Of a DNA stretch of 64,000 nucleotides, positions 17,284 to 57,351 are shown piece by piece. The notes under the pieces were generated by a model. It ran no database searches. It had not been told where the DNA came from and saw only the letters and a program-made list of their open reading frames with translations. The first letter of the stretch is position 1, and every line of letters starts with the position of its first letter. This DNA comes from an uncultured delta proteobacterium (GTDB lineage Bacteria; Desulfobacterota; Desulfobacteria; Desulfobacterales; SpSt-501), in assembly GCA_963791285.1 (NCBI GenBank), contig CAWBSC010000023.1, positions 399,767 through 463,766 on the forward strand. The letters run 5' to 3'. Both the position numbers and the translations under genes were made by a program.

Positions 17284-18471
17284 TCAGCGATTCAGGAGAT
17301 ACAGCACGGCGCCAGTGCCATGCCAGCTGTGCAGGCGGAATTTATAGCGATAGCCGCAATCCCTGAACGCCTCCATCAGCGCCTTCGGGCACTCCCAAAG
17401 CCCGAGGCGGTTGTGATAGACCGCCAAAGTAACCAGAGGACGCCACGCACGTATCGTGCCGACACCGCCTAAAATGGCGTCCAGTTCCGCCCCCTCGATG
17501 TGAGCCTTGATAAAACTCGGCCGCAGCCCGAGGTCGTCGATACGCCGGACCGCCACCTGGACGTTACCAAAGTCACAAAACTGCGACGCGAAATCCAGAC
17601 CATCGAAAAAGACCTGGGTCGTGCTCGCGCGACCCACGGCGCAGGCCAGCACATGCATCCGCAACCGTTCGTCGGCCGGAAGAGCGTCCATCCACATCTG
17701 CAATCGCGCGCGGTTCTCGTCATCAGGCTCGACCGCCCAGATCTCGCGGAAGCGATGCCCGACACGCTCCAGAAAGGTCCGGCACACACTGCCGTGGTGC
17801 GCGCCCAGGTCCAGCAGGCTTTCTTCGGTACCGAGGGTATCGGCCACTTCGTCGATAAAATAGCGGTTTTCAGTATTTACCGGGGCGTCGTCGAACAACC
17901 ACTCCTCGTGGAGACGATGCCATGCCAGGAACTGCAAGTGGTGGGCGCGCGACGCATCGTCGTCATAGGCTCTCAGCACGGCGCCGATACCGTCCACCTC
18001 ATCTTGAGTCAACTCGTCGACGAACCAGCCGTTTCCCAGCGGGTGGCGGTCGGCATAAGATGCGGTAATGGTATAGAAAGGGACCATGTCGCTCCATCCA
18101 CTCTCGGCCAGCGGCGTCACCACGCGGGTGTAGGGCACCTTGCCGACGCAGATCGCCAGCAGGTGTGCGGCCTTGTCGCGCGGCGAAACCTCTTCGGGGG
18201 CATGGAGGGCTACGCTTCGCCAAAACGGATCCGAGCGGCGGGTCGCCGCGTCGGCGTCGATGACGAAGGCCACGGGGATACCCAGCCGGTCGAAGTACTG
18301 TTTGGCCAGTTTGCCGAGCGCGCCGGCGCCGTAAAGCGCCAGCGGCTTGTCGACAGGCCGAGCCCGGGCCGTCACCGGCCGCGCGGCGATTTCGTGCAGC
18401 AGCGATATCGCTGCGTGAGCGTCCGGTGAGGTGGTCAGCCGGCGAGATGCCACTCGGTCCCGTGAGGCCAT
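17284..18471 (-). CDS. FkbM-family SAM-dependent methyltransferase with N-terminal Rossmann-like extension
   Basis: 395-aa ORF. LLDLGAHHGSVCRTF...AVEPDDENRARL...FIKAHIEGAELDAILGG has FkbM-type features. Confidence 0.75.
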   Translation of the reverse strand: MASRDRVASRRLTTSPDAHAAISLLHEIAARPVTARARPVDKPLALYGAGALGKLAKQYFDRLGIPVAFVIDADAATRRSDPFWRSVALHAPEEVSPRDKAAHLLAICVGKVPYTRVVTPLAESGWSDMVPFYTITASYADRHPLGNGWFVDELTQDEVDGIGAVLRAYDDDASRAHHLQFLAWHRLHEEWLFDDAPVNTENRYFIDEVADTLGTEESLLDLGAHHGSVCRTFLERVGHRFREIWAVEPDDENRARLQMWMDALPADERLRMHVLACAVGRASTTQVFFDGLDFASQFCDFGNVQVAVRRIDDLGLRPSFIKAHIEGAELDAILGGVGTIRAWRPLVTLAVYHNRLGLWECPKALMEAFRDCGYRYKFRLHSWHGTGAVLYLLNR

Positions 18472-18483
18472 GGCCGTCTCCCC

Positions 18484-20136
18484 TCAGACCGGCATGCCGA
18501 ATTCTACCGCGTACGAACGCCACTCCGGATCGTCGCGTACCAGTCTTCGGTAGGTGCGCATGTTCTCCTCGATCTGCACCGCATCCGCGTTCAGCGCCCG
18601 ATAGGACTGCGCCAGATAGTAATGGCCGAAGGCATGATTGCCGTAGCGCTCGATCACTTCTTCGAAGCAGCCGGCGGCGATCCGATAATCGCCTATTTTC
18701 ATGCGCCGATTGTTGACGAAATTAACGTCGAGGTTCATGAGATAGGCGCGCCGTGAAATCTTCGCAGGTTCCAGGCCTATTTCAGGCGCGTTGAGGATGT
18801 ACTGGTTGCCCTCGATATCGCCGAGCTTCATGTTGCGCGGGATATAGCCCTTTTCAGTCGCAATGCGATACAGCTCGCTACCCCGCACCGGCGACGCCAT
18901 GGAGAACCCGCTCCAATCGAGCCCCCACTCCTTGATGCAGCGCACGGTTTGCTCGCGGTCCTCCTCACGTTCGCCTGGCAGCCCGACGACGAAATAGGCT
19001 TGCACGAAGATATCGTTTTGTTGCAGCGCCTTAACCACCGGGCCGACACGCTCCAGGCGGATCGGTTTCCTGATCACCTTGCGCACCACATGGTCCGATC
19101 CCGACTCGATGGCCAGTGGCAGGGTATCCAGTCCCGCCTGCTTCATCAGGCAGGCCATCTCGTCGTCGATGAAAACCACGGTGACCCCGTTGGGCGTCTC
19201 CAGCCGCAACTTGAATTCCGCGAGCCGGCGGAACAGCTCCTTGGCTCGCCGCATATCCATCAGCAGTTGGTCATCATAGATCGTCAACACGTTCATGCCA
19301 TACCGGTCGACTCGAAACCGCACATGCTCGATGATGGCATCGACCTCGGCATAGCGCATGCTCTTGCCGTGCAGCGAGGGCTCGGCGCAGAACACGCACT
19401 TGAAAGGGCAGCCGCGTGAGGTGACGAGAAAAAACTGGCGCACATCGGTCTCGTTTCGATAGGAGGCGAACGGGGAGAATGCCTCTTTCATGCTGTAGAC
19501 CTTGCGGTCGATTAAGTCATAGTCGACCGCGATGACATCGTTGAGACGTGAAACATACACGCTGGTGGGTTTGACGCCCCGCGATAACGAAGCGCGGGTC
19601 ACCCATGGCGCGCCGGCGAACGCGTCGTCCAAGCTGGGCGAATTGACCACCTTCAGCATCGCCGCTTCGCCTTCGGAGTAGCACAACACATCGATATCCG
19701 GCTGGTCGGCGAGGATCTCCTCGTACGCGGTGGTTGCCGCTGCACCGCCGATGATGACTCGTGTCGCCGCCGAAAATGACTTGGCCTGGCCGGCGATTGC
19801 GGCAACGTGTTTATAAGACTGGTCAAACATCATTGAGATGCCGACGATGTCCGGCCGCAACTCGGCCATCGCCGCGTCGAGCGCCTGTGCATACTGGTCC
19901 GAAGAGTAGCGATTGAGATCGACAATTCGCAGATCGGGAACGGCATGGGCCCGGCGGCGCAAATACGTCGCAATCGACAACACGCCATATGGAAAGGCCA
20001 GGAAGCTGCGGGTCTTGCCCTGAGTGGCATCCTTCTTCTTTTCCAGGTAAGGCAATATCACGAACAGCAGCGACCGGCGCGGGGCGCGGCCCGCAACCGA
20101 TACCGTCGGATCGCAATGCGTTGGGTTCACATCCAT
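18484..20136 (-). CDS. B12-binding-domain radical SAM enzyme (class B), paralog 2
   Basis: ORF 18484..20181. The preferred start is ATG 20136, preceded by AGGAG. Motif TSRGCPFKCVFCAEP. Colinear with paralog 1 over its full length. Confidence 0.85.
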   Translation of the reverse strand: MDVNPTHCDPTVSVAGRAPRRSLLFVILPYLEKKKDATQGKTRSFLAFPYGVLSIATYLRRRAHAVPDLRIVDLNRYSSDQYAQALDAAMAELRPDIVGISMMFDQSYKHVAAIAGQAKSFSAATRVIIGGAAATTAYEEILADQPDIDVLCYSEGEAAMLKVVNSPSLDDAFAGAPWVTRASLSRGVKPTSVYVSRLNDVIAVDYDLIDRKVYSMKEAFSPFASYRNETDVRQFFLVTSRGCPFKCVFCAEPSLHGKSMRYAEVDAIIEHVRFRVDRYGMNVLTIYDDQLLMDMRRAKELFRRLAEFKLRLETPNGVTVVFIDDEMACLMKQAGLDTLPLAIESGSDHVVRKVIRKPIRLERVGPVVKALQQNDIFVQAYFVVGLPGEREEDREQTVRCIKEWGLDWSGFSMASPVRGSELYRIATEKGYIPRNMKLGDIEGNQYILNAPEIGLEPAKISRRAYLMNLDVNFVNNRRMKIGDYRIAAGCFEEVIERYGNHAFGHYYLAQSYRALNADAVQIEENMRTYRRLVRDDPEWRSYAVEFGMPV

Positions 20137-20161
20137 GCTGCACTCCTGTCCCCGCGCCGGA

Positions 20162-21478
20162 TCATGGCGCGCCGCAACCATCGCGCGTTCGGCTCAGTGC
20201 TTCGGCCCATTGCGCCAGCTTCGGGTCGGTGGGAAAGTAATGGTGGAATTGAAAGGCGCTGCCCTTGGTCTCTTCGAAGGCGTCGTGCGGCATGGTTGGG
20301 AGCGCTTTAATCGACAGCGTTCCGTCGTCATTGAAAATGCGGCCCGATTCCTGGCACGCCAGGAACCAGTTGTGGGGCTGATCCCCCAACACGCTTCGAA
20401 AATCGATCCGAGCGCGTGATCGCGACACCAGGTTCTGATAGGTGACGATGAATGCGTCGGCCAGACGCGCGCGGGTGAAACGCTGCCGGACATTCGACGC
20501 TGCCCGTCGAGCCATGGCCTGACGTTCGGCGGGGGTGCGAGATAACCACCGGATCGCCTCCGCGAACTCGCGTCGGGACGACACCACCATCCCCGTCACA
20601 CCGTGAGAGACGATCGCGGTCTCGGCCGCGTTGTCGAGGACAACGGGCACCACGCCCATCGCCATGGCCTCGATCAGCGCATTCTCGGCCGTGCCATAGT
20701 GCCGAGGGTTGAGCAAGTAAGCCAGGACATCCATCTGGCCGAGTTCGGCGGCCACATCGGTGACGTATCCCCGGAACTCGATCAGTTGCGGACGCCCCGC
20801 AGCGACACACTGGCGATGCAACTGCGCACGGTTCAGCTCGTCGCCCACCATCCGCACTCGAAATTCGGGGTCGCGTACGGCGGCTAACCAGTCGACGTAC
20901 TCGGGGTGCAACTTCGAGAAGTTCAAGCTGCCGAGGTAACCGGTCACCATGCGACGAGTTGGGTGGGCCTGTCGCCACAGGGGTGCCGGCAGATCTTCAC
21001 AGCCGACTCCACTGGAAATGACCGTGATCCGCCCCTCGGCCGCCGATCTTGTCCCGCGGATATTGGGAGCACCCAGCGAGCAAGGCGACGTGAGCACGAA
21101 CTGTGATGCCGCATCGGCCAGCCCGGCCGGTATCACCGGATTGACCAGACCGGACTGATGGCACCAGACCAGCAGCCTTGCCGTCAGAGCATGCAACCCG
21201 CACAGGGTCTCCAGAGTAGCTGGATGGTTCCACCACTCCACCTGGACGATGTCTGCCGTCTCGATGCGCCGCCTCAGCTCCTCACGGCCCGGCCGAACGA
21301 CAACGTCGCAGCCCGCGTCACGGATGGGCCGAACGAATTGGGTCTTTTCCGGACTCTCCAGACAAACGAACGAATGCCGAATGTCGCTACCGGCTGCGGC
21401 CGTTGCCCTGACCAGATTCGACAGCGCCCTGCCCACGCCACCGCCCAGATGCGGCGTCAAATGCAAAACGGTAATCAC
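20162..21478 (-). CDS. GT4-type (GT-B) glycosyltransferase with extra C-terminal domain
   Basis: 438-aa ORF. MITVLHLTPHLGGGVGRAL N-terminus; E-x7-E region GTAENALIEAMAMGVVPV. ATGA overlap with the upstream gene. Confidence 0.8.
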   Translation of the reverse strand: MITVLHLTPHLGGGVGRALSNLVRATAAAGSDIRHSFVCLESPEKTQFVRPIRDAGCDVVVRPGREELRRRIETADIVQVEWWNHPATLETLCGLHALTARLLVWCHQSGLVNPVIPAGLADAASQFVLTSPCSLGAPNIRGTRSAAEGRITVISSGVGCEDLPAPLWRQAHPTRRMVTGYLGSLNFSKLHPEYVDWLAAVRDPEFRVRMVGDELNRAQLHRQCVAAGRPQLIEFRGYVTDVAAELGQMDVLAYLLNPRHYGTAENALIEAMAMGVVPVVLDNAAETAIVSHGVTGMVVSSRREFAEAIRWLSRTPAERQAMARRAASNVRQRFTRARLADAFIVTYQNLVSRSRARIDFRSVLGDQPHNWFLACQESGRIFNDDGTLSIKALPTMPHDAFEETKGSAFQFHHYFPTDPKLAQWAEALSRTRDGCGAP

Positions 21479-31877: not shown

Positions 31878-31916
31878 TGCGAATCCGTCCAGTCAGATTC
31901 AGGTAAGGACGTCTAT

Positions 31917-32037
31917 AAGGCGAAGCCCAAAGCCCAAGTTCAAGGCGCGCGAGCCCTGCCGAACGAGGCGTGCTGTCGGCACGCCGCAGCCAGTGCAAGG
32001 CGAAGCGCAACGCCGAAATTGGGCTTTCGGCTTCGCC
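31917..32037. repeat. Nested inverted repeat between gpsA and radC
   Basis: GGCGAAGCCCAAAGCCC (31919-31935) pairs with GGGCTTTCGGCTTCGCC (32021-32037), 1 mismatch over 17 bp. Inner hairpin GGCGTGC-tgtcg-GCACGCC near 31967-31985. AAGGCGAAGC also occurs as a direct repeat. Confidence 0.7.
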
Positions 32038-32038
32038 A

Positions 32039-33074
32039 TCAGTCGTCGTCCAGCTCCGGTTTGGGGTCCCGCGTCATCAGTTCGTGCAGCGCCTCCCGCG
32101 GCGGCAGGTCCTCGTAGAGGATCCGATACGTCTGCCGGCTGATCGGCATCTCCACCCCTAGCCGGCTGGACAGCTGGTGGACCGATTGCGCTGTGCGCAC
32201 CCCTTCGGCCACCATGCGCATCGACTCCAGGACGTCGCTCAGCCGCCGGCCGGCCGCAAGCTCGCGGCCCACCGTGTGGTTGCGGCTCAGATTCCCCCGT
32301 GCAGGTCAGGATCAGGTCCCCGTAGCCGGCCAGCCCGCTGAACGTCCGCGGGTTGGCCCCCATGCGCTTGCCCAGCCGGCGGATCTCGGTCATGCCGCGG
32401 GTGATGAGGGCCGCCCGCGTGTTCAGCCCCAGCCCCAGCCCGTCGACGATTCCCGCAGCGATAGCGATCACGTTCTTGAGCGCCCCACCCAGCTCGACCC
32501 CGACCGTGTCCCGGCTGGTGTACACCCGGAAGTTGGGCGTCGCGAAGGTGCGTTGCACCGCCCGCGCCAGTTCGGCCTTGCGCGCGGCCACCGTCACCAC
32601 CGTCGGCATCCGGCGCGCCACTTCCACCGCAAAGCTCGGACCCGAGAGCACCGCCAGGCGCTCATCCGATAGCCCGAGCGTCTCCTTCAGCACCCCGGTC
32701 ATGGTCAGCTCGGTCCCGTTCTCGATCCCCTTGGAGACCGAGACCACGGCCGCCCCGGGTTCCATCCGTGCAGACAGGGCCCCGGCGACCGCGCGCAGGT
32801 GCTGGGAGGGCACCGCCATCACCACCAGGTCCTTGCCGACGACCGCGCGGCCGAGGTCGCCCGTGGCCGTCAGGGTTTCGGCCAACCGGATGCCTTTCAG
32901 AAAGAGCCCGTTTTCATGCCACGCGTTGACCTGCTCCACGATCTCGGGCTCGCGCGCCCAGAGGTCCACCCGATGCCCGTTGCGCGCGAGCAGGTCGGCC
33001 AGCACCGTCCCCCAGCTCCCCGCGCCGACTACTCCGACAAGCCGGCTCTTGCCGGCGGCCGCCTCAGCCCGCAT
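32039..33074 (-). pseudogene. gpsA: NAD(P)H-dependent glycerol-3-phosphate dehydrogenase, disrupted by +1 frameshift in a homopolymer run (probably an assembly error)
   Basis: The N-part is in ORF 31899..33074 (VGVVGAGSWGTVLA...GYGDLILTCTG). The C-part is in ORF 32039..32272 (GRELAAGRRLSDVLESMRMVAEGVRTA...). The switch is at the C5/G5 run 32294-32298. Confidence 0.85.
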
Positions 33075-41038: not shown

Positions 41039-42106
41039 ATGACTACCCCACCCCGGGTCCTCGTCATCGGCGCCGGTATCGGCGGCCTCACGGCCGCGAT
41101 CGTCCTGGCGGATCACGGGGTCGAGGTCGACCTGGTTGAACGGGGACCGGCGCCCGGCGGCCACGCGGCTCGACTGGCCTGCAAGGCGACCGACCACTGC
41201 GTCCGGTGCGGCGCCTGCCTAGTGACCGCGGCGATCGAGGTCGCGACGGATCACCCCCGCATCCGCCTGCGCCTCTCCAGCCGCGCGGAGACCGTCCGCG
41301 CGACCGACGCGGGCTTCACGTACCAGGTGGTCTCGGAATCCGCCTCCACGAAGGCTGCGGCCGATGCGGTTCTGATCGCAGCGGGCTTCGACCTGTTCGA
41401 CCCCCGGGACAAGCCTTACGGGTTCGGTCTCTACCCCGATGTCGTCACCAACCTGCAGGTCGAGACCCTGCTGCGCTCGCCCGGCGGAGTGGTCAAGCCG
41501 TCCGACGGAACCCCGCCGGCCCGGGTGGCCTTTCTGCAGTGCGTCGGCAGCCGCGACCGGAAACTCGATCACCTGTGGTGCTCCACATTTTGCTGCGGCG
41601 CTTCGGTGAGGGCCGCCGCGCGCATCCAGGCGGCCCATCCGGAGACCGAAATCACCGTCTTCTATATCGACATCCAGTCGTTCGGCCGGGATTTCGAGGC
41701 GGCCCGGAGCGAATACCGCCGCAGCCTGCGCTTCGTGCGCGGGGTGCCGGCCGAGGCATTCCAGGACGGCACCGCGGGGATCCGCCTGACCTGGCTGGAC
41801 CTGGAATCGCGCCAGGCCAGCGAGGAAACCTTCGACCTGGTGGTCCTGGCCTGCGGCATGGTGCCGGCGGCCGGGCTGGCCGAGCCGGCGGCCGGGTTCG
41901 GCCTGCACCCGGAGGCGACCGGCTTCCTCCCCGCGGCCGGTGCCCCGGGTGTCTTTGCCGCCGGTGCGGTGCGCGGGCCGATGACGATCCCCGAGACCAT
42001 CGCAGATGCGCGCCACGCGGCCGCCCGGCTGCTGTCCCATTTGAAACCAGACGCGGCTGAGCGCCCGGGCCGGTCCGCCGCGACCCGACGGACGATCTTC
42101 CCGTGA
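41039..42106 (+). CDS. HdrA-like FAD-dependent oxidoreductase (thioredoxin-reductase-like domain only)
   Basis: 355-aa ORF. VLVIGAGIGGLTAA dinucleotide fold, CVRCGAC, and the HdrA-type CSTFCCG motif. Confidence 0.75.
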   Translation: MTTPPRVLVIGAGIGGLTAAIVLADHGVEVDLVERGPAPGGHAARLACKATDHCVRCGACLVTAAIEVATDHPRIRLRLSSRAETVRATDAGFTYQVVSESASTKAAADAVLIAAGFDLFDPRDKPYGFGLYPDVVTNLQVETLLRSPGGVVKPSDGTPPARVAFLQCVGSRDRKLDHLWCSTFCCGASVRAAARIQAAHPETEITVFYIDIQSFGRDFEAARSEYRRSLRFVRGVPAEAFQDGTAGIRLTWLDLESRQASEETFDLVVLACGMVPAAGLAEPAAGFGLHPEATGFLPAAGAPGVFAAGAVRGPMTIPETIADARHAAARLLSHLKPDAAERPGRSAATRRTIFP

Positions 42107-42134
42107 CCGCGGCCGAACCGGACGAGGACACGCC

Positions 42135-43685
42135 ATGACCCATCCCGTGTGCATTTTCGGCACCCCGGCCGATTCTCGGGAGATCGTCGACGTCTTCCTG
42201 GAGCAGGGACGGCACGTCCTGCTTGTGCCCGGCCCGGACGCGGAGGCCGCGCTCGCGCGGGAGGGTGGGCGCACGGACGGATTGGAGGTTCTGGCGCCGG
42301 CGCGGCTGCTCGCCTGCGGCGGCCGACCCGGTGAGTTCGATCTGACGTTCACCGCCGCAGATGCGGTGGTGCGGCGCCGGGTGTCGGCGCTCGTGCTCGC
42401 CCACAGGCCGGAACGGCATCCGCATTACGCTTCGTACGGGCTGCGGCCCGCACCCGCCGTCCTGCCGGCTGCGCGTCTCGTCGAAATGGGCTGCCGCCCC
42501 CCGGCCGGCACGGTCTGGAAGGAGGTGGCGATCCTGAACGGGCTGCAATCCGAAAGCTCCCCGCGGGCAACCGGCGCGCTGCTGCAGATCGCCCTGCGGC
42601 TCCGGCGTGAGATGCGCGCCCGCTGTCACGTCTTCACCCGCAACCTCCAGGTCGCCGCCGACGGGCTGGAGGCGCTCGCTTACGACGCGCGCACCGCCGG
42701 GGTGGTGTTCCACAAGTTCACCCACTCCGCCCCGGTCATTCGCCAGGACGAGGACGGCCGGGCGCATTTCGCATTCACGGACGAGATCACGGGGGTCGAG
42801 CTCCGGCTCGCGCCCGATCTCGTGGTCGTCGACGAAGCCTTCGAGCCCCCGGCCGTCGTGCGCGAGCTCGCCCGCACCCTCGAACTGGAGACCGATGCAG
42901 CGGGCTTTCCCCAGGCCGACAACGTCCACCGGCTCCCCGTGTTCACGAACCGCCGGGGGGTGCTGATCGCGGGGGCGGCGCTGCCGTGCGGTGCTGCGGG
43001 GGCCGCGGACGCATCCAATCTGATCCTGGCGCTGCGACCCGAATCGAATCCGACCGCCGCGCAGATCGACCCCGCACGGTGCGTACGCTGCCTCACCTGC
43101 TACCGGGTCTGCCCCTACCGCGCGGTGTCGCTTGTCAATCGGCCCGAGGTGCAGCCGGCCGCCTGCGAGGGGTGCGGGATCTGCCGTGCCGAGTGTCCCC
43201 GCCAGGCCATCCGCATCCCCGGGCTGGAGCCGGCGGATATTCGCGGCCTCATCGCGTCCGAGCGGCCCGCGTCCGGGCGGCGGCCGCGCCTGACGGTGTT
43301 CGCCTGCGCACGCTCCGGCGGGCCGGCCGTGCGCTCGGCCGCGGCCGCCGGGCCGTCGTGGGAGGCGCAGGTCACGGTCGTCGAGGTGCCGTGCGCCGGC
43401 AGCCTGAGCCGGGATTTCATCCACTCGGCCTTCGACCTCGGCGCCGACGGCGTCCTGGTCCTCACCTGCCACGACGAGAACTGCCACTCCCGCACGGGCA
43501 ACCGTCTGGCCCGCTCCCGGGTCGCACAGACCCAGGCCTTTCTGGACGGCTGCGGACTGGCGGGCCGGCTCGTCCTTCGGACGATCGCCGCCAACATGCC
43601 GGCCGAGACCGGCCGCGCCCTGGCGGAGCTTGCGGCGCAGCTGACCGCGACCGAGCCGGGTCCCGTCCCGGGGCCGGCCGACTGA
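42135..43685 (+). CDS. Fusion protein: degenerate HdrA-like domain + 2x[4Fe-4S] ferredoxin domain + MvhD-like domain
   Basis: 516-aa ORF. CVRCLTCYRVCP and CEGCGICRAECP. The C-terminus (VFACARSG...VPCAGSLS...LVLTCHDENCHSRTGN) is MvhD-like. Confidence 0.75.
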   Translation: MTHPVCIFGTPADSREIVDVFLEQGRHVLLVPGPDAEAALAREGGRTDGLEVLAPARLLACGGRPGEFDLTFTAADAVVRRRVSALVLAHRPERHPHYASYGLRPAPAVLPAARLVEMGCRPPAGTVWKEVAILNGLQSESSPRATGALLQIALRLRREMRARCHVFTRNLQVAADGLEALAYDARTAGVVFHKFTHSAPVIRQDEDGRAHFAFTDEITGVELRLAPDLVVVDEAFEPPAVVRELARTLELETDAAGFPQADNVHRLPVFTNRRGVLIAGAALPCGAAGAADASNLILALRPESNPTAAQIDPARCVRCLTCYRVCPYRAVSLVNRPEVQPAACEGCGICRAECPRQAIRIPGLEPADIRGLIASERPASGRRPRLTVFACARSGGPAVRSAAAAGPSWEAQVTVVEVPCAGSLSRDFIHSAFDLGADGVLVLTCHDENCHSRTGNRLARSRVAQTQAFLDGCGLAGRLVLRTIAANMPAETGRALAELAAQLTATEPGPVPGPAD

Positions 43686-43695
43686 AGGATTCCCT

Positions 43696-44913
43696 ATGCC
43701 GAACACAACGGATCCGACCCCCCCGGCGACCGCACGCGAGGTGTCCCACCCTTTCGACCTCGAAGCCTGCATGACCTGCGGCCTGTGCGCGAGCGTCTGC
43801 CCGGTTGCGGGCGTGGACGACTTCGACCCGCGCCTGTTCGTGCGTCTGCTGGCCCTCGGCCTCGAGCAGACGGCCGTCGATGCCCGCTGGCCGTGGATCT
43901 GCACCATGTGCGGCAAGTGCGAACACATCTGCCCCATGCAGGTCCGCATCGCCGACGCCGTGCGCCGGGTGCGCTCGCTGCGCGCGCGGGACCGGGTGCC
44001 GGGCGTCCTGCACAAGGGGCTGCAGGCGGCGCTCGAGACCGGCAACAACCTGCGCCTGCCCCGGGAGGACTTCCTGTTTATCCTGGAGGACGTAGCGTCT
44101 GAAATCCGCGAGGAGAAGGGGTTCGAGACGTTCCAGGTCCGGCCGGACCAACGGGGCGCCCGCGTCCTCACGACGATTCACAACAAGCTCGTCAACACCC
44201 ACACCGAGGACCTGAAGCACTGGTGGAAGATTTTCCACGCAGCGGGGGAACGCTGGACGGTGTCCTCTGAGAACTGGGAGGGGACGAGCTGGGGGTACTT
44301 CACGGGCGACGACGACGCCATGAAGACCATGGCCGGCCGCATCCTCCGGCAGATGGAAGATCTGCAGGTCGAGACTCTGCTCTGGCCCGAGTGAGGGCAC
44401 GCCTACCTCGCGACCCGGTCCGGGTTCGAAGCGCACTTCCCCGAGGCAATGAAGACATACCGCTTTGTGACGGTGTTCGACCTGCTCACGGAGTACATCC
44501 GTCAGGGCCGCATCCGTCTCGACCGCAGCCGCTTCCCGCAGCGGGTCGCCTACCACGACCCGTGCAACTACGGCCGCAAGGCCCAGATGAAATTCGGCCA
44601 CGGGTTCTTCGAGGAGCCGCGCTGGATCCTTGGCCAGTGCGTCGAGGATTGGGTCGACCTCTATCCCAACCGCATGAACCAGACCTGTTGCGGCGGCGGG
44701 GGCGGCGCCCTCACGACCGGCTACAAGGCGGAAGGCCTTTTCTACGGCCGGCGCAAGATGGAGCAGATCCGGGCGACCGGCGCCGCGATGGTCGCCGTCC
44801 CCTGCCACAGCTGCCACGGCCAGCTGGAGCAGGTCAAATCCCATTACGGAATGGCGGATCTGGAGGTCAAATACCTCTGGGAGCTCGTGGCGGACGCCCT
44901 CGTGATCGGCTGA
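43696..44913 (+). CDS. HdrD/GlpC-like (Fe-S)-binding CCG-domain protein with probable selenocysteine at the in-frame TGA 44392-44394
   Basis: ORFs 43696..44394 and 44449..44913 are in the same frame and separated only by one TGA. The read-through codons make sense (LLWPE-U-GHAYLATRSGFEAHFPEAMKTYRF). N-terminus: CMTCGLCASVCP and CTMCGKCEHICP. C-terminus: HDPCNYG...TCCGGGGG...VPCHSCHG (CCG domain). Confidence 0.7.
44409..44434 (+). promoter_or_regulatory. Candidate bacterial SECIS hairpin downstream of the in-frame UGA
   Basis: ACCC (44413-16) pairs with GGGU (44422-25) around an apical GGUCC loop. Flanking GCG/CGC can extend the stem. The loop GU lies about 27 nt after the UGA. Confidence 0.5.
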
Positions 44914-44933
44914 CCCTCTCTGGCCCCATCCCG

Positions 44934-44971
44934 CCGCCTCGGCGCCGCAAGGCGCCGAGGCGGTTTTGTTT
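44934..44971 (+). terminator. Rho-independent terminator of the Hdr-like operon
   Basis: Perfect 13-bp stem CCGCCTCGGCGCC / GGCGCCGAGGCGG with a GCAA loop, followed by TTTTGTTT. Confidence 0.85.
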
Positions 44972-45005
44972 CCGAGCGCAGCGAATCTGTCTTCGGAATT
45001 TCCGA

Positions 45006-51577: not shown

Positions 51578-53612
51578 ATGGCAGGCAAAGAGCTAACCGG
51601 GTCTTCGGAAGCTGAAATTGCGGTACACTGGGGGGAAGAAGGGCTGATTTACCCAACGCCTGATTTTATCTCCCAAGCCAACATGACCGACCCATCCATC
51701 TACAAGCGGTTCAGCCTGGAGGATTTTCCCAACTGTTTCAAAGAGTACGCTGACATGCTCGACTGGTACGAGTATTGGCACACCATGCTGGACACCAGCG
51801 ACGCTCCCTGCTGGAAGTGGTTTGTGGGGGGCAAGATCAACGCATCTTACAACTGCATCGACCGGCACCTGGCGAAGAACAAGAACAAAGCCGCCATTCA
51901 CTTTGTCCCCGAGCCCATGGGCGAGAAGTACGAGCACATCACCTACCAGGAGCTCTACAAGCGGGTGAACGAGTTTGCGGCATTGCTGCGCGACTTCGCC
52001 AAGCTTAAAAGGGGCGATCGCGTCACACTGCACATGCCGATGGTACCTGAACTGCCGATCACCATGCTGGCCTGCGCCCGACTCGGGGTGATTCACTCCC
52101 AAGTATTCGGAGGCTTTTCGGGACGCGCCTGCGCCGACCGCATCGTGGACTCGCAGAGCCGGGTGCTGATCACGATGGATGCCTACTGGCGCAACGGCAC
52201 CCTGGGCGACCACAAGCAGAACGCGGATATTGCCTGCGACCTGGCAGCCAAAGACGGCCAGAAGGTGGACACCGTGCTGGTGTGGCAGCGCTACCCCGGC
52301 AAGGCCTCCAGTCCTGCGCCCATGGTCAAGGGCCGCGACCACTTCGTAAATGATATCCTCAAGGACTTCTACGGCGCGATCGTCGAGCCGGAAAAGATGC
52401 CGGCCGAAGCACCGCTCTTCCTGATGTACACCAGCGGCACCACCGGCAAGCCCAAGGGCTGCCAGCACAGTACGGGCGGCTACCTGGCCTACACGGCCGG
52501 CACCTCCAAGTACGTGCAGGACATCCACCCCGAGGACGTCTACTGGTGCATGGCCGACATCGGCTGGATCACCGGGCATTCCTACATCGTCTACGGTCCT
52601 CTCGCGATCGGCGCCTCCACCGTCGTGTACGAAGGCGTACCCACCTTCCCGGATGCCGGCCGGGCCTGGCGGATCGCCCAGGACCTGGACGTGAACATCT
52701 TCCACACGGCGCCGACCACCATCCGGGCGCTGCGCAAGCTCGGGCCGGAAGAGCCGGCCAAGTACAACTTCAACTTCAAACACATGACCACCGTGGGCGA
52801 ACCGATCGAACCGGAGGTCTGGCGCTGGTACTACGAACGTTGTCGGAAAGGGTAAGGCCGCCATCGTGGACACCTGGTGGCAGACCGAAACCGGCGGCTT
52901 CCTGTGCAGCACCCTCCCCGCGATGAAACCCATGAAACCGGGCAGCGCCGGACCGGGGATGCCGGGCATCCATCCCATCATCTACGATGAGAACGGGAAC
53001 GTCATCCCGCCGGGGGCCGGCCGCGCCGGGAACATCTGCATCCAGAACCCCTGGCCGGGCGGGTTCCAGACCATCTGGGGCGATCGCGACCGCTTCGTGA
53101 GCACCTACTACGCGCGCTACTGCAAGAACCCCAAGAGCAAGGACTGGCGCGACTGGCCTTACATGACGGGCGATGCCGCGGTCGAGGCGCCGGACGGCTA
53201 TTACCGTATCCTGGGACGCGTGGACGACGTGATCAACGTGTCCGGGCACCGCCTGGGGACCAAGGAAATCGAGTCCGCGGCCCTGGCGGTGGAGGAGGTG
53301 GCCGAGGCGGCGGTAGTGCCGGTGGCGCACGAGATCAAGGGCCGCGAGCCGGATCTCTACATCGCGCTCAAGCCGGGGTTCTCCTCAAGCCCCGAGTTGG
53401 AGAAGAAGATCTCCGACGCCATCATCCGCGAGATCGGCAAAATCGCCAAGCCGCGCAGGGTCTGGATCGTGAAAGACATGCCCAAGACACGCTCCGGGAA
53501 GATCATGCGTCGGGTGTTGGCCGCCATTTCCAACAAGCGGGACGTGGGAGACGTCACCACCCTAGCCAACCCCGAGATCGTCGAGGACATCCAGAAAATG
53601 GCCGCCAAATAG
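51578..53612 (+). pseudogene. acs: AMP-forming acetyl-CoA synthetase with one +1 frameshift (likely sequencing error)
   Basis: ORF 51578..52855 (…YTSGTTGKPKG…WRWYYER) continues in ORF 52866..53612 (VGKGKAAIVDTWWQTETGG…PKTRSGKIMRR). The shift is near 52838-52842 (CGTTGTC versus expected CGTGTC). Confidence 0.9.
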
Positions 53613-55250: not shown

Positions 55251-55440
55251 TCCGAACGCAGCCGAGACGGTGGCGGGCCCGCCGCGTTTACTGCAGCGTG
55301 ACGGCAGCCAAACCGCAGCGGGCTCAGCTGAACAGACCGGGCACCCGGTGCCACGGGATACCCATGATTGCCGGTCGTGTGGCGATTCATACCCGGCCGC
55401 GACCCGCTCCATCGCATATCCACTTCAACAGGAGAGGCCC

Positions 55441-57351
55441 ATGAGCAACGCCTATGACATTGCTTACACCCAATCGATCCAGGACCCCGATGCGTTCTGG
55501 GGCAAGGTCGCCGAGGACTGCCACTGGTACAAGAAGTGGGACAAGGTCCTGGACGACTCGCGCAAGCCCTTTTACCGCTGGTTCACCGGCGGCGAGCTCA
55601 ACACATGCTACAACGCTCTCGACTTGCATGTGGACCGCGGGCGCGGCGGTCAGACCGCCTTGGTCTACGACAGCCCAGTGACCCAGACGGTCAGGACGTT
55701 CACCTACCTGCAACTCCGCGACGAGGTGGCTCGTTTCGCGGGCGCCTTGGCCGCCCGAGGCGTCACCAAGGGCGACCGGGTCATCATCTACATGCCGATG
55801 ATCCCCGAAGCGCTCGTCGCCATCCTGGCCTGCGCCCGGCTGGGCGCCGTGCATTCGGTGGTGTTCGGCGGGTTTGCCCCGCCGGAGCTGGCCGTTCGCA
55901 TCAATGACGCCAAACCCAAATTGATCGTGTCGGCCTCCTGCGGGATCGAGATCAACCGGGTGATCCCCTACAAGCCCCTGCTGGATGCGGCCATCGACAT
56001 CGCCTCGTCCAAGCCCGACGCACTGCATCATCGTCCAGCGGCCGATGCAGAGGGCCGAGATGAAGCCCGGGCGCGACCTCGACTGGAACGAGGTCCTGGA
56101 GAAGGCCAAGCCCCACGACTGCGTGCCGGTGAAGGCCACCGACCCCCTGTACATCCTGTACACCTCCGGCACCACCGGCGTCCCCAAGGGCGTGGTGCGC
56201 GACAACGGCGGCCACGTGGTCGCCCTGAAGTGGACCATGAAGGCCATCTACAACGTGGACGCGGGCGACGTCTTCTGGGCGGCTTCGGACGTGGGCTGGG
56301 TGGTGGGGCATTCCTACATCGTGTACGGGCCCCTCTTCAAAGGCTGCACCACCATCCTCTACGAGGGCAAGCCGGTGGGCACGCCGGATGCGGGTGCGTT
56401 CTGGCGGGTGATCTCGCAGCATAAGGTCAAGTGCCTCTTCACGGCGCCGACGGCGTTCCGCGCCATCAAACGCGAGGACCCGAACGCCCTGTTGATGCAG
56501 ACGTACGACCTCTCCGTGCTTCAAGACGCTGTTCCTGGCCGGCGAGCGCCTGGACCCGGACACCCTGCGCTGGGCACAGAACAGCCTGGGCACGCCGGTG
56601 ATCGACCACTGGTGGCAGACCGAGACCGGTTCGGCCATCGCCGGGAACTGCCTGGGCCTTCACCAGTTCCCAGTCAAGGAAGGCTCCCCGACCAAGGCCG
56701 TGCCCGGCTGGGACCTGGCGGTCCTGGGGCCCGACAAGCAACCGGCCAACACCGAGGAAATCGGCGCTCTGGTGGCCAGGCTACCCATGCCGCCCGGCAC
56801 ACTGCCCACCCTGTGGAACAACGACCAGGGATTCCTGAAGTCCTACCTCGAGGAGTTCCCGGGCTATTACAAGACAGCCGATGCAGGCTTCATCGATAAG
56901 GACGGATACGTCTTCGTGATGTCACGCACCGATGACATCATCAACGTGGCCGGGCACCGGCTTTCCACCGGTGCGATGGAGGAAGTCCTGTCCGACCACA
57001 AGGACGTGGCCGAGTGCGCAGTGCTGGGGGTGGACGATGCCCTGAAGGGCCAGGTGCCCATCGGGTTCATCGTCTTGAAAACCGGGGTGACGCGCAGACC
57101 CCGAAGAGATCGTCAAGGATGTCGTCCAGATGGTGCGGGACCGCATCGGCCCGGTGGCTTCCTTTAAGACGGCCACGGTCGTCAAGCGGCTACCCAAGAC
57201 CCGCTCGGGCAAAATCCTGCGCGGCACGATCCAGAAGATCGCCGACAACAAGGACTGGAAAATGCCGGCCACCATCGACGACCCTGTGGTTCTGGATGAA
57301 ATCAAGCAGGCGCTGGGAAAGGTCGGGTATGCTCAGAGACGGAAACCCTGA
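55441..57351 (+). pseudogene. prpE: Propionate--CoA ligase / acyl-CoA synthetase with three +1 frameshifts (likely sequencing errors)
   Basis: MSNAYDIAYTQSIQDPDAFWGK... The frame order is 1 > 2 > 0 > 1, with switches near 56020, 56520 and 57100 (CCC to CCCC). Motifs: YTSGTTGVPKG, DHWWQTETG, PKTRSGKILR. Confidence 0.85.

Follow-up and report, generated by a model that had tools for sequence, protein, structure and literature searches.

We describe here a gene for a putative Fe-S oxidoreductase of the HdrD/GlpC type, located in a 64,000-nucleotide (nt) stretch of contig CAWBSC010000023.1 from an uncultured delta proteobacterium (hereafter, the window), which is interrupted by a single in-frame TGA. 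With high confidence, we consider the region 43696-44913 to be one gene encoding a 405-residue cytoplasmic protein, codon 233 of which is decoded as selenocysteine (Sec). It is very probable that this TGA is a real Sec codon accompanied by a real Sec insertion sequence (SECIS), and that the gene is an unannotated member of a selenoprotein family described earlier. A previous reading made from the sequence only had called this UGA a probable selenocysteine. The strict conservation of the TGA, the cysteine found at the same column of the homologs and a covarying hairpin with a GG loop all supported this proposal.

We translated 43696-44913 in a single frame and found that the lone internal stop is the TGA at 44392-44394 (codon 233). 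The open reading frames (ORFs) on its two sides, 43696-44394 and 44449-44913, are in a common frame, as had been noted before. The sequence around the TGA is ...DLQVETLLWPE*GHAYLATRSGFEAHFPEAMKTYRF... (in a shorter view, ...VETLLWPE*GHAYLATRSGFEAHFPEAMKTY...), and the predicted Sec-spanning peptide of the protein is QMEDLQVETLLWPE-U-GHAYLATR.

Homologs of the protein were searched in a database of 5.8 billion proteins, and two classes were obtained. Dozens of proteins that are 75–95% identical to the N-terminal ORF are nearly all exactly 232 amino acids (aa) long and end with LLWPE or LMWPE. The second class comprises homologs of ∼480 aa having 45–52% identity, which span the whole read-through product. 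At the DNA level, we compared nine truncated-gene loci, fetched via protein identity, and 80 species-representative genomes; some of the assemblies are present in both sets. The 80 genomes are deltaproteobacterial metagenome-assembled genomes (MAGs), nearly all labelled as Desulfobacterales or Thermodesulfobacteriota and one binned as Nitrospinaceae, and they include a symbiont of Olavius algarvensis (L031). We observed the following. TGA was present at the codon 233 position in 80 of the 80 species-representative genomes as well as in the nine fetched loci, and TAA, TAG or TGY were never found there. Counting the window along with the genomes, all 81 sequences have TGA. In contigs that extend to the end of the gene, 170–183 in-frame codons follow the TGA, starting with GHAYL(A/S)TR; five contigs end before this point, and one locus (L010, the closest relative of the window) has a downstream frameshift. 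The codon alignment also revealed purifying selection on the flanks on both sides of the TGA.

In every public assembly examined, the gene callers have split this locus into two, as if the TGA were a real stop codon that separates a 232-aa HdrC-like ferredoxin from a ∼150-aa CCG-domain protein initiated from the ATG at 44449. The presence of this ATG in the window, and the fact that HdrC and HdrB are separate subunits in the methanogens (PDB matches), are in accordance with such an arrangement. However, we consider the synthesis of two polypeptides to be very improbable. This ATG is not maintained among the genomes, as the first in-frame start past the TGA is found anywhere from codon +5 to +97, which leaves no conserved site of restart. 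The 18 codons that lead from the TGA to this ATG had been described earlier as translating sensibly; they are conserved at the protein level (GHAYLATRSG...) and align with the contiguous Cys-containing homologs. While the internal codon is always TGA, the gene itself ends with TGA in 28, TAA in 28 and TAG in 20 of the genomes, that is, all the three stop codons are used about equally. Moreover, the split would fall inside an HdrB-like fold. We found neither a terminator-like nor a promoter-like site between the TGA and the downstream ORF.

The full-length homologs align straight across the TGA site with LLLPE-C-GHAY. In the column aligned to the TGA, 63 of the 78 full-length homologs have Cys, 12 have Ser, two have Leu and one has Gly. 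This is consistent with the earlier suggestion that the TGA is located where a redox-active Cys is expected. Judged from these alignments, the presence of Cys at the UGA column in most of the full-length homologs marks a classic Sec/Cys position.

The mRNA downstream of the UGA is predicted to form a hairpin, with 17 nt between the UGA and the core stem and 22 nt between the UGA and the loop. The apical loop, GGUCC, can be read either as a 5-nt loop or as a GUC triloop with an extra G-C pair. The published model of the bacterial SECIS (bSECIS) specifies a loop of 3–9 nt, an upper stem of 4–16 bp, G in the first two loop positions, a UGA-to-loop distance of 16–37 nt and a minimum free energy ≤ −7.5 kcal/mol (PMC13188914, Fig. 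2 legend). The window hairpin is within all these limits, having a loop of 5 nt, a stem of 5 bp, GG at the start of the loop, a distance of 22 nt and a dG of −10.1 kcal/mol for the 29-nt segment that includes a lower extension. The stem becomes 8 bp long if this extension is counted. When the 29-nt segments of the family were folded, 56 of the 81 members passed the energy cut-off. The sequence-only reading had described a hairpin ∼17 nt downstream with a GGU-containing loop and a spacing in the range of bacterial SECIS elements, and these features agree well with the present results.

We analyzed the conservation of this hairpin by register-aware counting in the 81 sequences and by an alignment specific to the members with a 4-nt loop. 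The 5-bp stem was found at a fixed position in 79 of the 81 sequences, with GACCC/GGGUU, GACCC/GGGUC, AACCC/GGGUU and GACCA/UGGUC as variants. The apical loop begins with GG in all 81 of them (GGUC in 42, GGUCC in 26, GGUA in 5, and others). Among the distinct sequences of the 4-nt-loop class, 19 close the stem with C-G and 12 with A-U, and in none is this pair open; the switch between C-G and A-U occurs via synonymous codons, Arg CGG/AGG together with Ser TCG/TCT. In the same class, 91.9% of the cells are paired, compared to 30–58% with slid partners, and none of 500 shuffles attained the observed pairing or covariation score. RNAalifold recovered just 2 bp of the hairpin from the pooled, ungapped codon alignment of 76 sequences, because the members are split into 4-nt- and 5-nt-loop registers that an ungapped alignment does not reconcile.

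Synonymous variation has collapsed at codons +6 to +12 after the TGA, and the entropy is near zero at +7 and +12. The Thr codon at +7 is ACC in 80 of 80 sequences, while other Thr columns of the alignment use 3–4 codons. Within the hairpin codons, Arg is encoded by CGG or AGG only, compared to the use of all six codons at the other Arg columns, and Glu is encoded by GAA in 67 of 68 cases.

Several observations weigh against the assignment of this UGA as a Sec codon. The fold energy of the single sequence is no better than those of its shuffles (z = 0.35 and 0.59), and hence, the support for the hairpin comes from the comparison among the orthologs. The conserved core stem is short (5 bp), and across the family there is no conservation of the lower stem. 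A search with the covariance models of Rfam was negative; no SECIS family matched either the whole window at the gathering score or the region 44300-44520 at E ≤ 10. Short gene-specific bacterial SECIS elements are little covered by Rfam. None of selA, selB, selD and tRNA-Sec is located within the 64-kb window. ARAGORN detected no tRNA or tmRNA genes, and hence no tRNA-Sec, in the window or in 57 related loci (∼1 Mb). The sel genes are presumably located elsewhere in the host genome. The Cys column also varies: the presence of Ser in 12 of the 78 sequences suggests that the residue is not a strict requirement in all relatives and is likely to be dispensable in a minority of the paralogs. The incorporation of selenium at codon 233 is predicted for this ortholog group from the sequence comparisons.

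The lack of Sec machinery within the window and the shortness of the core hairpin could also be accommodated if the UGA were read through by something other than Sec, that is, by a near-cognate Trp or Cys or by another recoding signal, with the hairpin acting as a generic stimulator. The nature of the hairpin and of its host makes this hardly probable. The loop always has GG, usually GGU, at a spacing typical for SelB, and matches the GGUC of E. coli fdhF. The Cys in the homologs makes a classic Sec/Cys pair, and the protein family, the taxon and the motif coincide with those of a catalogued selenoprotein family. In addition, Desulfobacteraceae are documented to have the complete sel machinery and 31 selenoproteins (PMC2702500).

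The window DNA is 95–97.7% identical to that of its closest public relative, the MAG MFD00905.bin.2.117 (L010), contig CAWHEZ010000003.1. From ∼10940 of L010 onward (corresponding to 44640-44913 of the window), the C-terminal half of the selenoprotein gene is frameshifted after ...GQCVE and the frame runs for 657 codons; this is probably due to an assembly indel. In the window itself, an acs-type gene is split on the forward strand into 51578-52855 (AMP-binding) and 52866-53612 (AMP-binding_C). As there is one extra base at ∼52835 relative to L010, this split in 51578-53612 is probably a frameshift or a sequencing indel. From these two instances, we concluded that these assemblies contain indel errors. 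A second acs-like gene on the same strand is apparently broken as well (55270-56424, ACAS_N and partial AMP-binding; 56598-57167, AMP-binding_C). On the reverse strand, the ORF of a GpsA-like glycerol-3-phosphate dehydrogenase (31899-33074) is longer than usual and its C-terminal Pfam domain is matched over positions 1-73 of 142 only, and it may be another indel-affected gene. Although single-base indels thus break other genes in this contig and in its closest relative, there is next to no likelihood that a TGC/TGT Cys codon was turned into this TGA by a mistake in sequencing or assembly or by a recent mutation that made a pseudogene, because the TGA is common to the genomes of 80 other species and to several independent metagenome assemblies obtained with different technologies, both of its flanks are under purifying selection, and it is a substitution-type feature, whereas the errors elsewhere are indels, as the sequence-only reading had also pointed out in stating that this disruption, unlike the others in the contig, is not a frameshift.

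Table 1. Coordinates of the HdrD/GlpC-like gene, its predicted recoding elements and the operon in the window
Feature	Position	Strand	Basis or remarks
Predicted full-length selenoprotein gene, HdrD/GlpC-like Fe-S oxidoreductase	43696..44913	+	405 codons including Sec233; single-frame translation
HdrC-like ferredoxin domain, two [4Fe-4S] motifs	43750..43944	+	Pfam Fer4_8, residues 22-83
Degenerate N-terminal CCG-like domain, ∼residues 149-245	44140..44430	+	Predicted model of Cys homolog; boundaries inferred
UGA codon 233, very probably read as selenocysteine, motif PE-U-GH	44392..44394	+	Conserved TGA; Cys-type homologs
Probable bacterial SECIS hairpin	44408..44429	+	Comparative folding; dG −10.1 kcal/mol
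Hairpin core stem, 5 bp	G44412-A-C-C-C44416 with G44422-G-G-U-U44426	+	Folding and orthologs
Apical loop GGUCC	44417-44421	+	Folding and orthologs
Lower extension, optional, C44411 bulged	U44408-G44410 / C44427-A44429	+	Folding
Intact C-terminal CCG domain (PF02754), residues 284-377	44545..44826	+	Pfam E = 7.7e-13
True stop TGA of the HdrD/GlpC-like gene	44911-44913	+	Single-frame translation
HdrA-like FAD/pyridine-nucleotide-disulfide oxidoreductase, 355 aa	41039..42106	+	Pfam Pyr_redox_2; NCBIfam HdrA2 sub-threshold
HdrA C-terminal part, 2x[4Fe-4S] ferredoxin and MvhD/FlpD fusion, 516 aa	42135..43685	+	Pfam FlpD E = 2.5e-24; Fer4
Intrinsic terminator closing the operon	44933..44974 or 44933-44964	+	14-bp stem, 12 G-C pairs, then TTTGTTT

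The domain organization of the read-through product is that of GlpC/HdrD, a 2x[4Fe-4S] ferredoxin domain followed by a Cys-rich CCG domain (Pfam). In the ortholog alignment, the ferredoxin cysteines 25, 28, 31 and 35 and 69, 72, 75 and 79, as well as all five cysteines of the CCG domain (Cys290, Cys331, Cys332, Cys370 and Cys373), are invariant. In PDB searches, the N-terminal half matched HdrC chains (E = 7e-12 to 1e-9), and the C-terminal half aligned by sequence with the C-terminal CCG domain of HdrB and of M. smegmatis EtfD. We also used an AlphaFold model of a Cys-containing homolog, P0021 (mean predicted local distance difference test score 84), for Foldseek searches. It matched EtfD (E = 1.6e-12), LutA, HdrB and HdrC; 286–290 columns were aligned with the full-length HdrB chains, with template-modelling scores of 0.60–0.66 when normalised to HdrB. 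From the matches with HdrC and, by both sequence and model, with HdrB, we concluded that the protein is a fusion of HdrC and HdrB, that is, an HdrD-like protein. The best NCBIfam matches (HmcF, TmcB, DsrK, TfrB, HdrC and GlpC) are all far below the family cut-offs, and the protein is, therefore, not one of these equivalogs but a generic HdrD/GlpC-like Fe-S oxidoreductase. The earlier assignment to the GlpC/HdrD-like oxidoreductases thus agrees with both the Pfam domains and the structural matches.

The exact place assigned earlier to the TGA, the first Cys of a PF02754 CCG domain, turned out to be incorrect. The Pfam CCG domain begins at residue 284, 51 residues downstream of the Sec, and C290, the first Cys in the profile match, follows the Sec by 57 residues. 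The segments around the Sec gave no Pfam CCG match even at E ≤ 10, and hhalign did not find an internal repeat between the N-terminal CCG-like segment and the C-terminal CCG domain. The canonical HdrB/HdrD motif consists of two copies of CX(31-39)CCX(35-36)CXXC, and canonical HdrB, as in the 5ODC structure, reportedly has two complete CCG motifs, each with a non-cubane [4Fe-4S] cluster. In the window protein, instead of two complete motifs or two Pfam CCG domains, one match only was obtained. As the PDB profile alignments to HdrB and EtfD cover the C-terminal CCG domain only, the Sec column could not be placed residue-by-residue on a solved structure. In the P0021 model, Cys309 comes after a strand (303-306) and before a helix (311-323), and the C-terminal CxxC (C446, C449) comes after a strand (441-444) and opens a helix (447-460). 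Because of this parallel strand-Cys-helix pattern and the structural alignment with HdrB, we infer from the model that Sec233 would be placed at the CxxC of a first CCG-like domain, which is degenerate and has lost its other cysteines.

The ∼480-aa Cys-type paralogs (P0002-P0099) all carry an extra N-terminal helix-turn-helix (PF12728, excisionase/MerR-like), which is not present in the Sec-type clade. These fused paralogs may represent a lineage of redox-sensing regulators.

We propose the following mechanism. At the UGA, the mRNA hairpin (44408-44429) would recruit SelB-GTP-Sec-tRNA(Sec), so that Sec is inserted instead of termination by a release factor, and translation would continue up to the stop at 44911. 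The N-terminal HdrC-like part of the product would have two [4Fe-4S] clusters, and in its HdrB-like C-terminal part the second CCG domain would be intact, while the first CCG-like domain would be without its cluster-binding cysteines and retain only Sec233. The HdrD-like protein and the products of the two upstream genes probably form a soluble Hdr-like electron-transfer complex. Sec233 would be spatially next to the remaining CCG cluster, and could act there as a redox-active nucleophile that reduces a putative disulfide-type substrate. A more specific scheme, which we consider tentative and rather doubtful, is that the first CCG domain of this clade lost its Fe-S cluster, and that the Sec replaces a former cluster-ligating Cys of the CxxC and faces the remaining CCG cluster. 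Disulfide cleavage would then follow a hybrid 'one cluster plus one selenol' chemistry, analogous to that of ferredoxin:thioredoxin reductase, and not that of the two-cluster HdrB of methanogens, in a clade that has been mis-annotated as two genes.

The genes for the HdrA-like protein and the HdrA-C/MvhD fusion are located directly upstream of the HdrD-like gene on the same strand (Table 1). The product of 42135..43685 also matched HdrA2 and VhuD of NCBIfam, both below the thresholds. The intrinsic terminator starts 20 nt past the true stop of the HdrD-like gene. In the relatives, the order of genes is isochorismatase, hdrA-like, hdrA-C/mvhD, the split hdrD-like gene, MFS and serA, and the same order of the two upstream partners is also seen in the orthologous loci L001 and L003. 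There is no in-frame UGA in the two partners (41039-43685), and therefore only the HdrD-like subunit uses Sec in the window operon.

In the rest of the window, we scanned for other pairs of ORFs joined by one TGA and found no second convincing candidate. On the reverse strand, 17284-18471 and 18484-20181 are in the same frame with a single TGA (18484-18486) between them, and an ATG follows at 12 nt; most probably these are two neighbouring genes, for a B12/radical SAM protein and a protein having no Pfam match. TGA is the stop codon of 27 of the 38 Pfam-supported genes of the window. Therefore, UGA is not reassigned genome-wide, and we rejected a global reassignment as an explanation. The region 167-26602 is a large surface-polysaccharide or glycosylation island with many glycosyltransferases, TPR proteins and genes of the dTDP-rhamnose pathway, and it also has two B12-binding radical SAM proteins, one SPASM radical SAM protein and a CmcI-type methyltransferase. 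The G+C content is ∼60–61% over 12–28 kb, compared to 65–70% elsewhere.

The main value of these results lies in the correction of annotation across more than 80 genomes. The locus, called as a 232-aa "HdrC" and a ∼150-aa CCG fragment in all the public assemblies examined, should very probably be annotated as one 405-residue selenoprotein. The two-gene split hides the probable catalytic residue and distorts the metabolic reconstructions of Desulfobacterales. The present data add a well-supported ortholog group (>80 species) to a selenoprotein family that is known only from bioinformatics, and provide a compact SECIS with covariation that could serve in experiments. This gene does not alter the understanding of how Sec is decoded or of the Hdr-type enzymes. 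A further point of interest is the hint that, in an Hdr-type active site, a lost Fe-S cluster may be replaced by a selenol.

Among the known systems, the two-domain CCG fold of the HdrB/HdrD catalytic subunit (PDB 5odc_B, 8rvu_B and 7bkb_B), EtfD (9ojn) and LutA was recovered for the Cys homolog. Compared to canonical HdrB, the window protein is devoid of the first CCG motif, and Sec233 would be its sole remnant in that domain.

The closest counterpart is the Fe-S oxidoreductase-like (GlpC) selenoprotein family having the Sec motif UGH, which is tabulated in PMC13188914 (crediting its ref. 12) and has also been treated in PMC1794560, PMC1976440 and PMC1914089. The earlier statement that GlpC/HdrD-like selenoproteins have been reported in deltaproteobacteria is in agreement with this literature (PMC13188914, PMC1794560, PMC1976440 and PMC2702500). 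The hosts of the family are Syntrophobacter, Desulfotalea, Desulfovibrio and the Olavius symbionts (PMC1794560, PMC1976440, PMC1914089, PMC13188914), and its genes often adjoin hdrA and frhD/mvhD, as in the glpC-hdrA-frhD operons of Deltaproteobacteria (PMC13188914, PMC1794560, PMC1976440). The window gene resembles this family in the Sec motif (PE-U-GH versus UGH), in the ferredoxin and CCG architecture, in the existence of Cys-containing homologs, in its occurrence in sulfate-reducing or syntrophic deltaproteobacteria, including the Olavius symbiont L031, and in the hdrA and mvhD/frhD neighbours. The published members include DP1009 and WP_174406253.1, and the likeness of the window gene to the family is one of motif, architecture, taxon and neighbours. 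The operon is different. The published operons have five genes (glpC-hdrA-frhD-frhG-frhA), in which hdrA and frhD also encode selenoproteins and are followed by the genes of hydrogenase subunits; indeed, in many deltaproteobacterial operons of the literature, the counterparts of the HdrA-like and MvhD-containing proteins contain Sec. In the window, on the other hand, hdrA-like, hdrA-C+mvhD and glpC-like genes are followed by a terminator, the partners are without in-frame UGA and there are no hydrogenase genes.

Desulfobacterium autotrophicum HRM2 has a Sec-containing HdrD4 together with Cys paralogs and a complete selABCD set (PMC2702500). By its description, HdrD4 is likewise a soluble HdrD (a fusion of HdrC and HdrB) that is a selenoprotein in Desulfobacteraceae.

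The SECIS of E. coli fdhF, as in the window gene, is a hairpin within the coding region directly 3′ of the UGA. It has a longer stem of ∼40 nt, whereas only the 5-bp core is conserved in the HdrD-like family. In fdhF of MG1655, ...GCA-GGUC-UGC... comes 18 nt after UGA140, compared to the 22 nt that precede the loop in the window, and the window loop is GGUCC in place of the GGUC of fdhF. The GGUC tetraloop of fdhF closed by an A-U pair is identical to that of the GACCA-GGUC-UGGUC members of the HdrD-like family.

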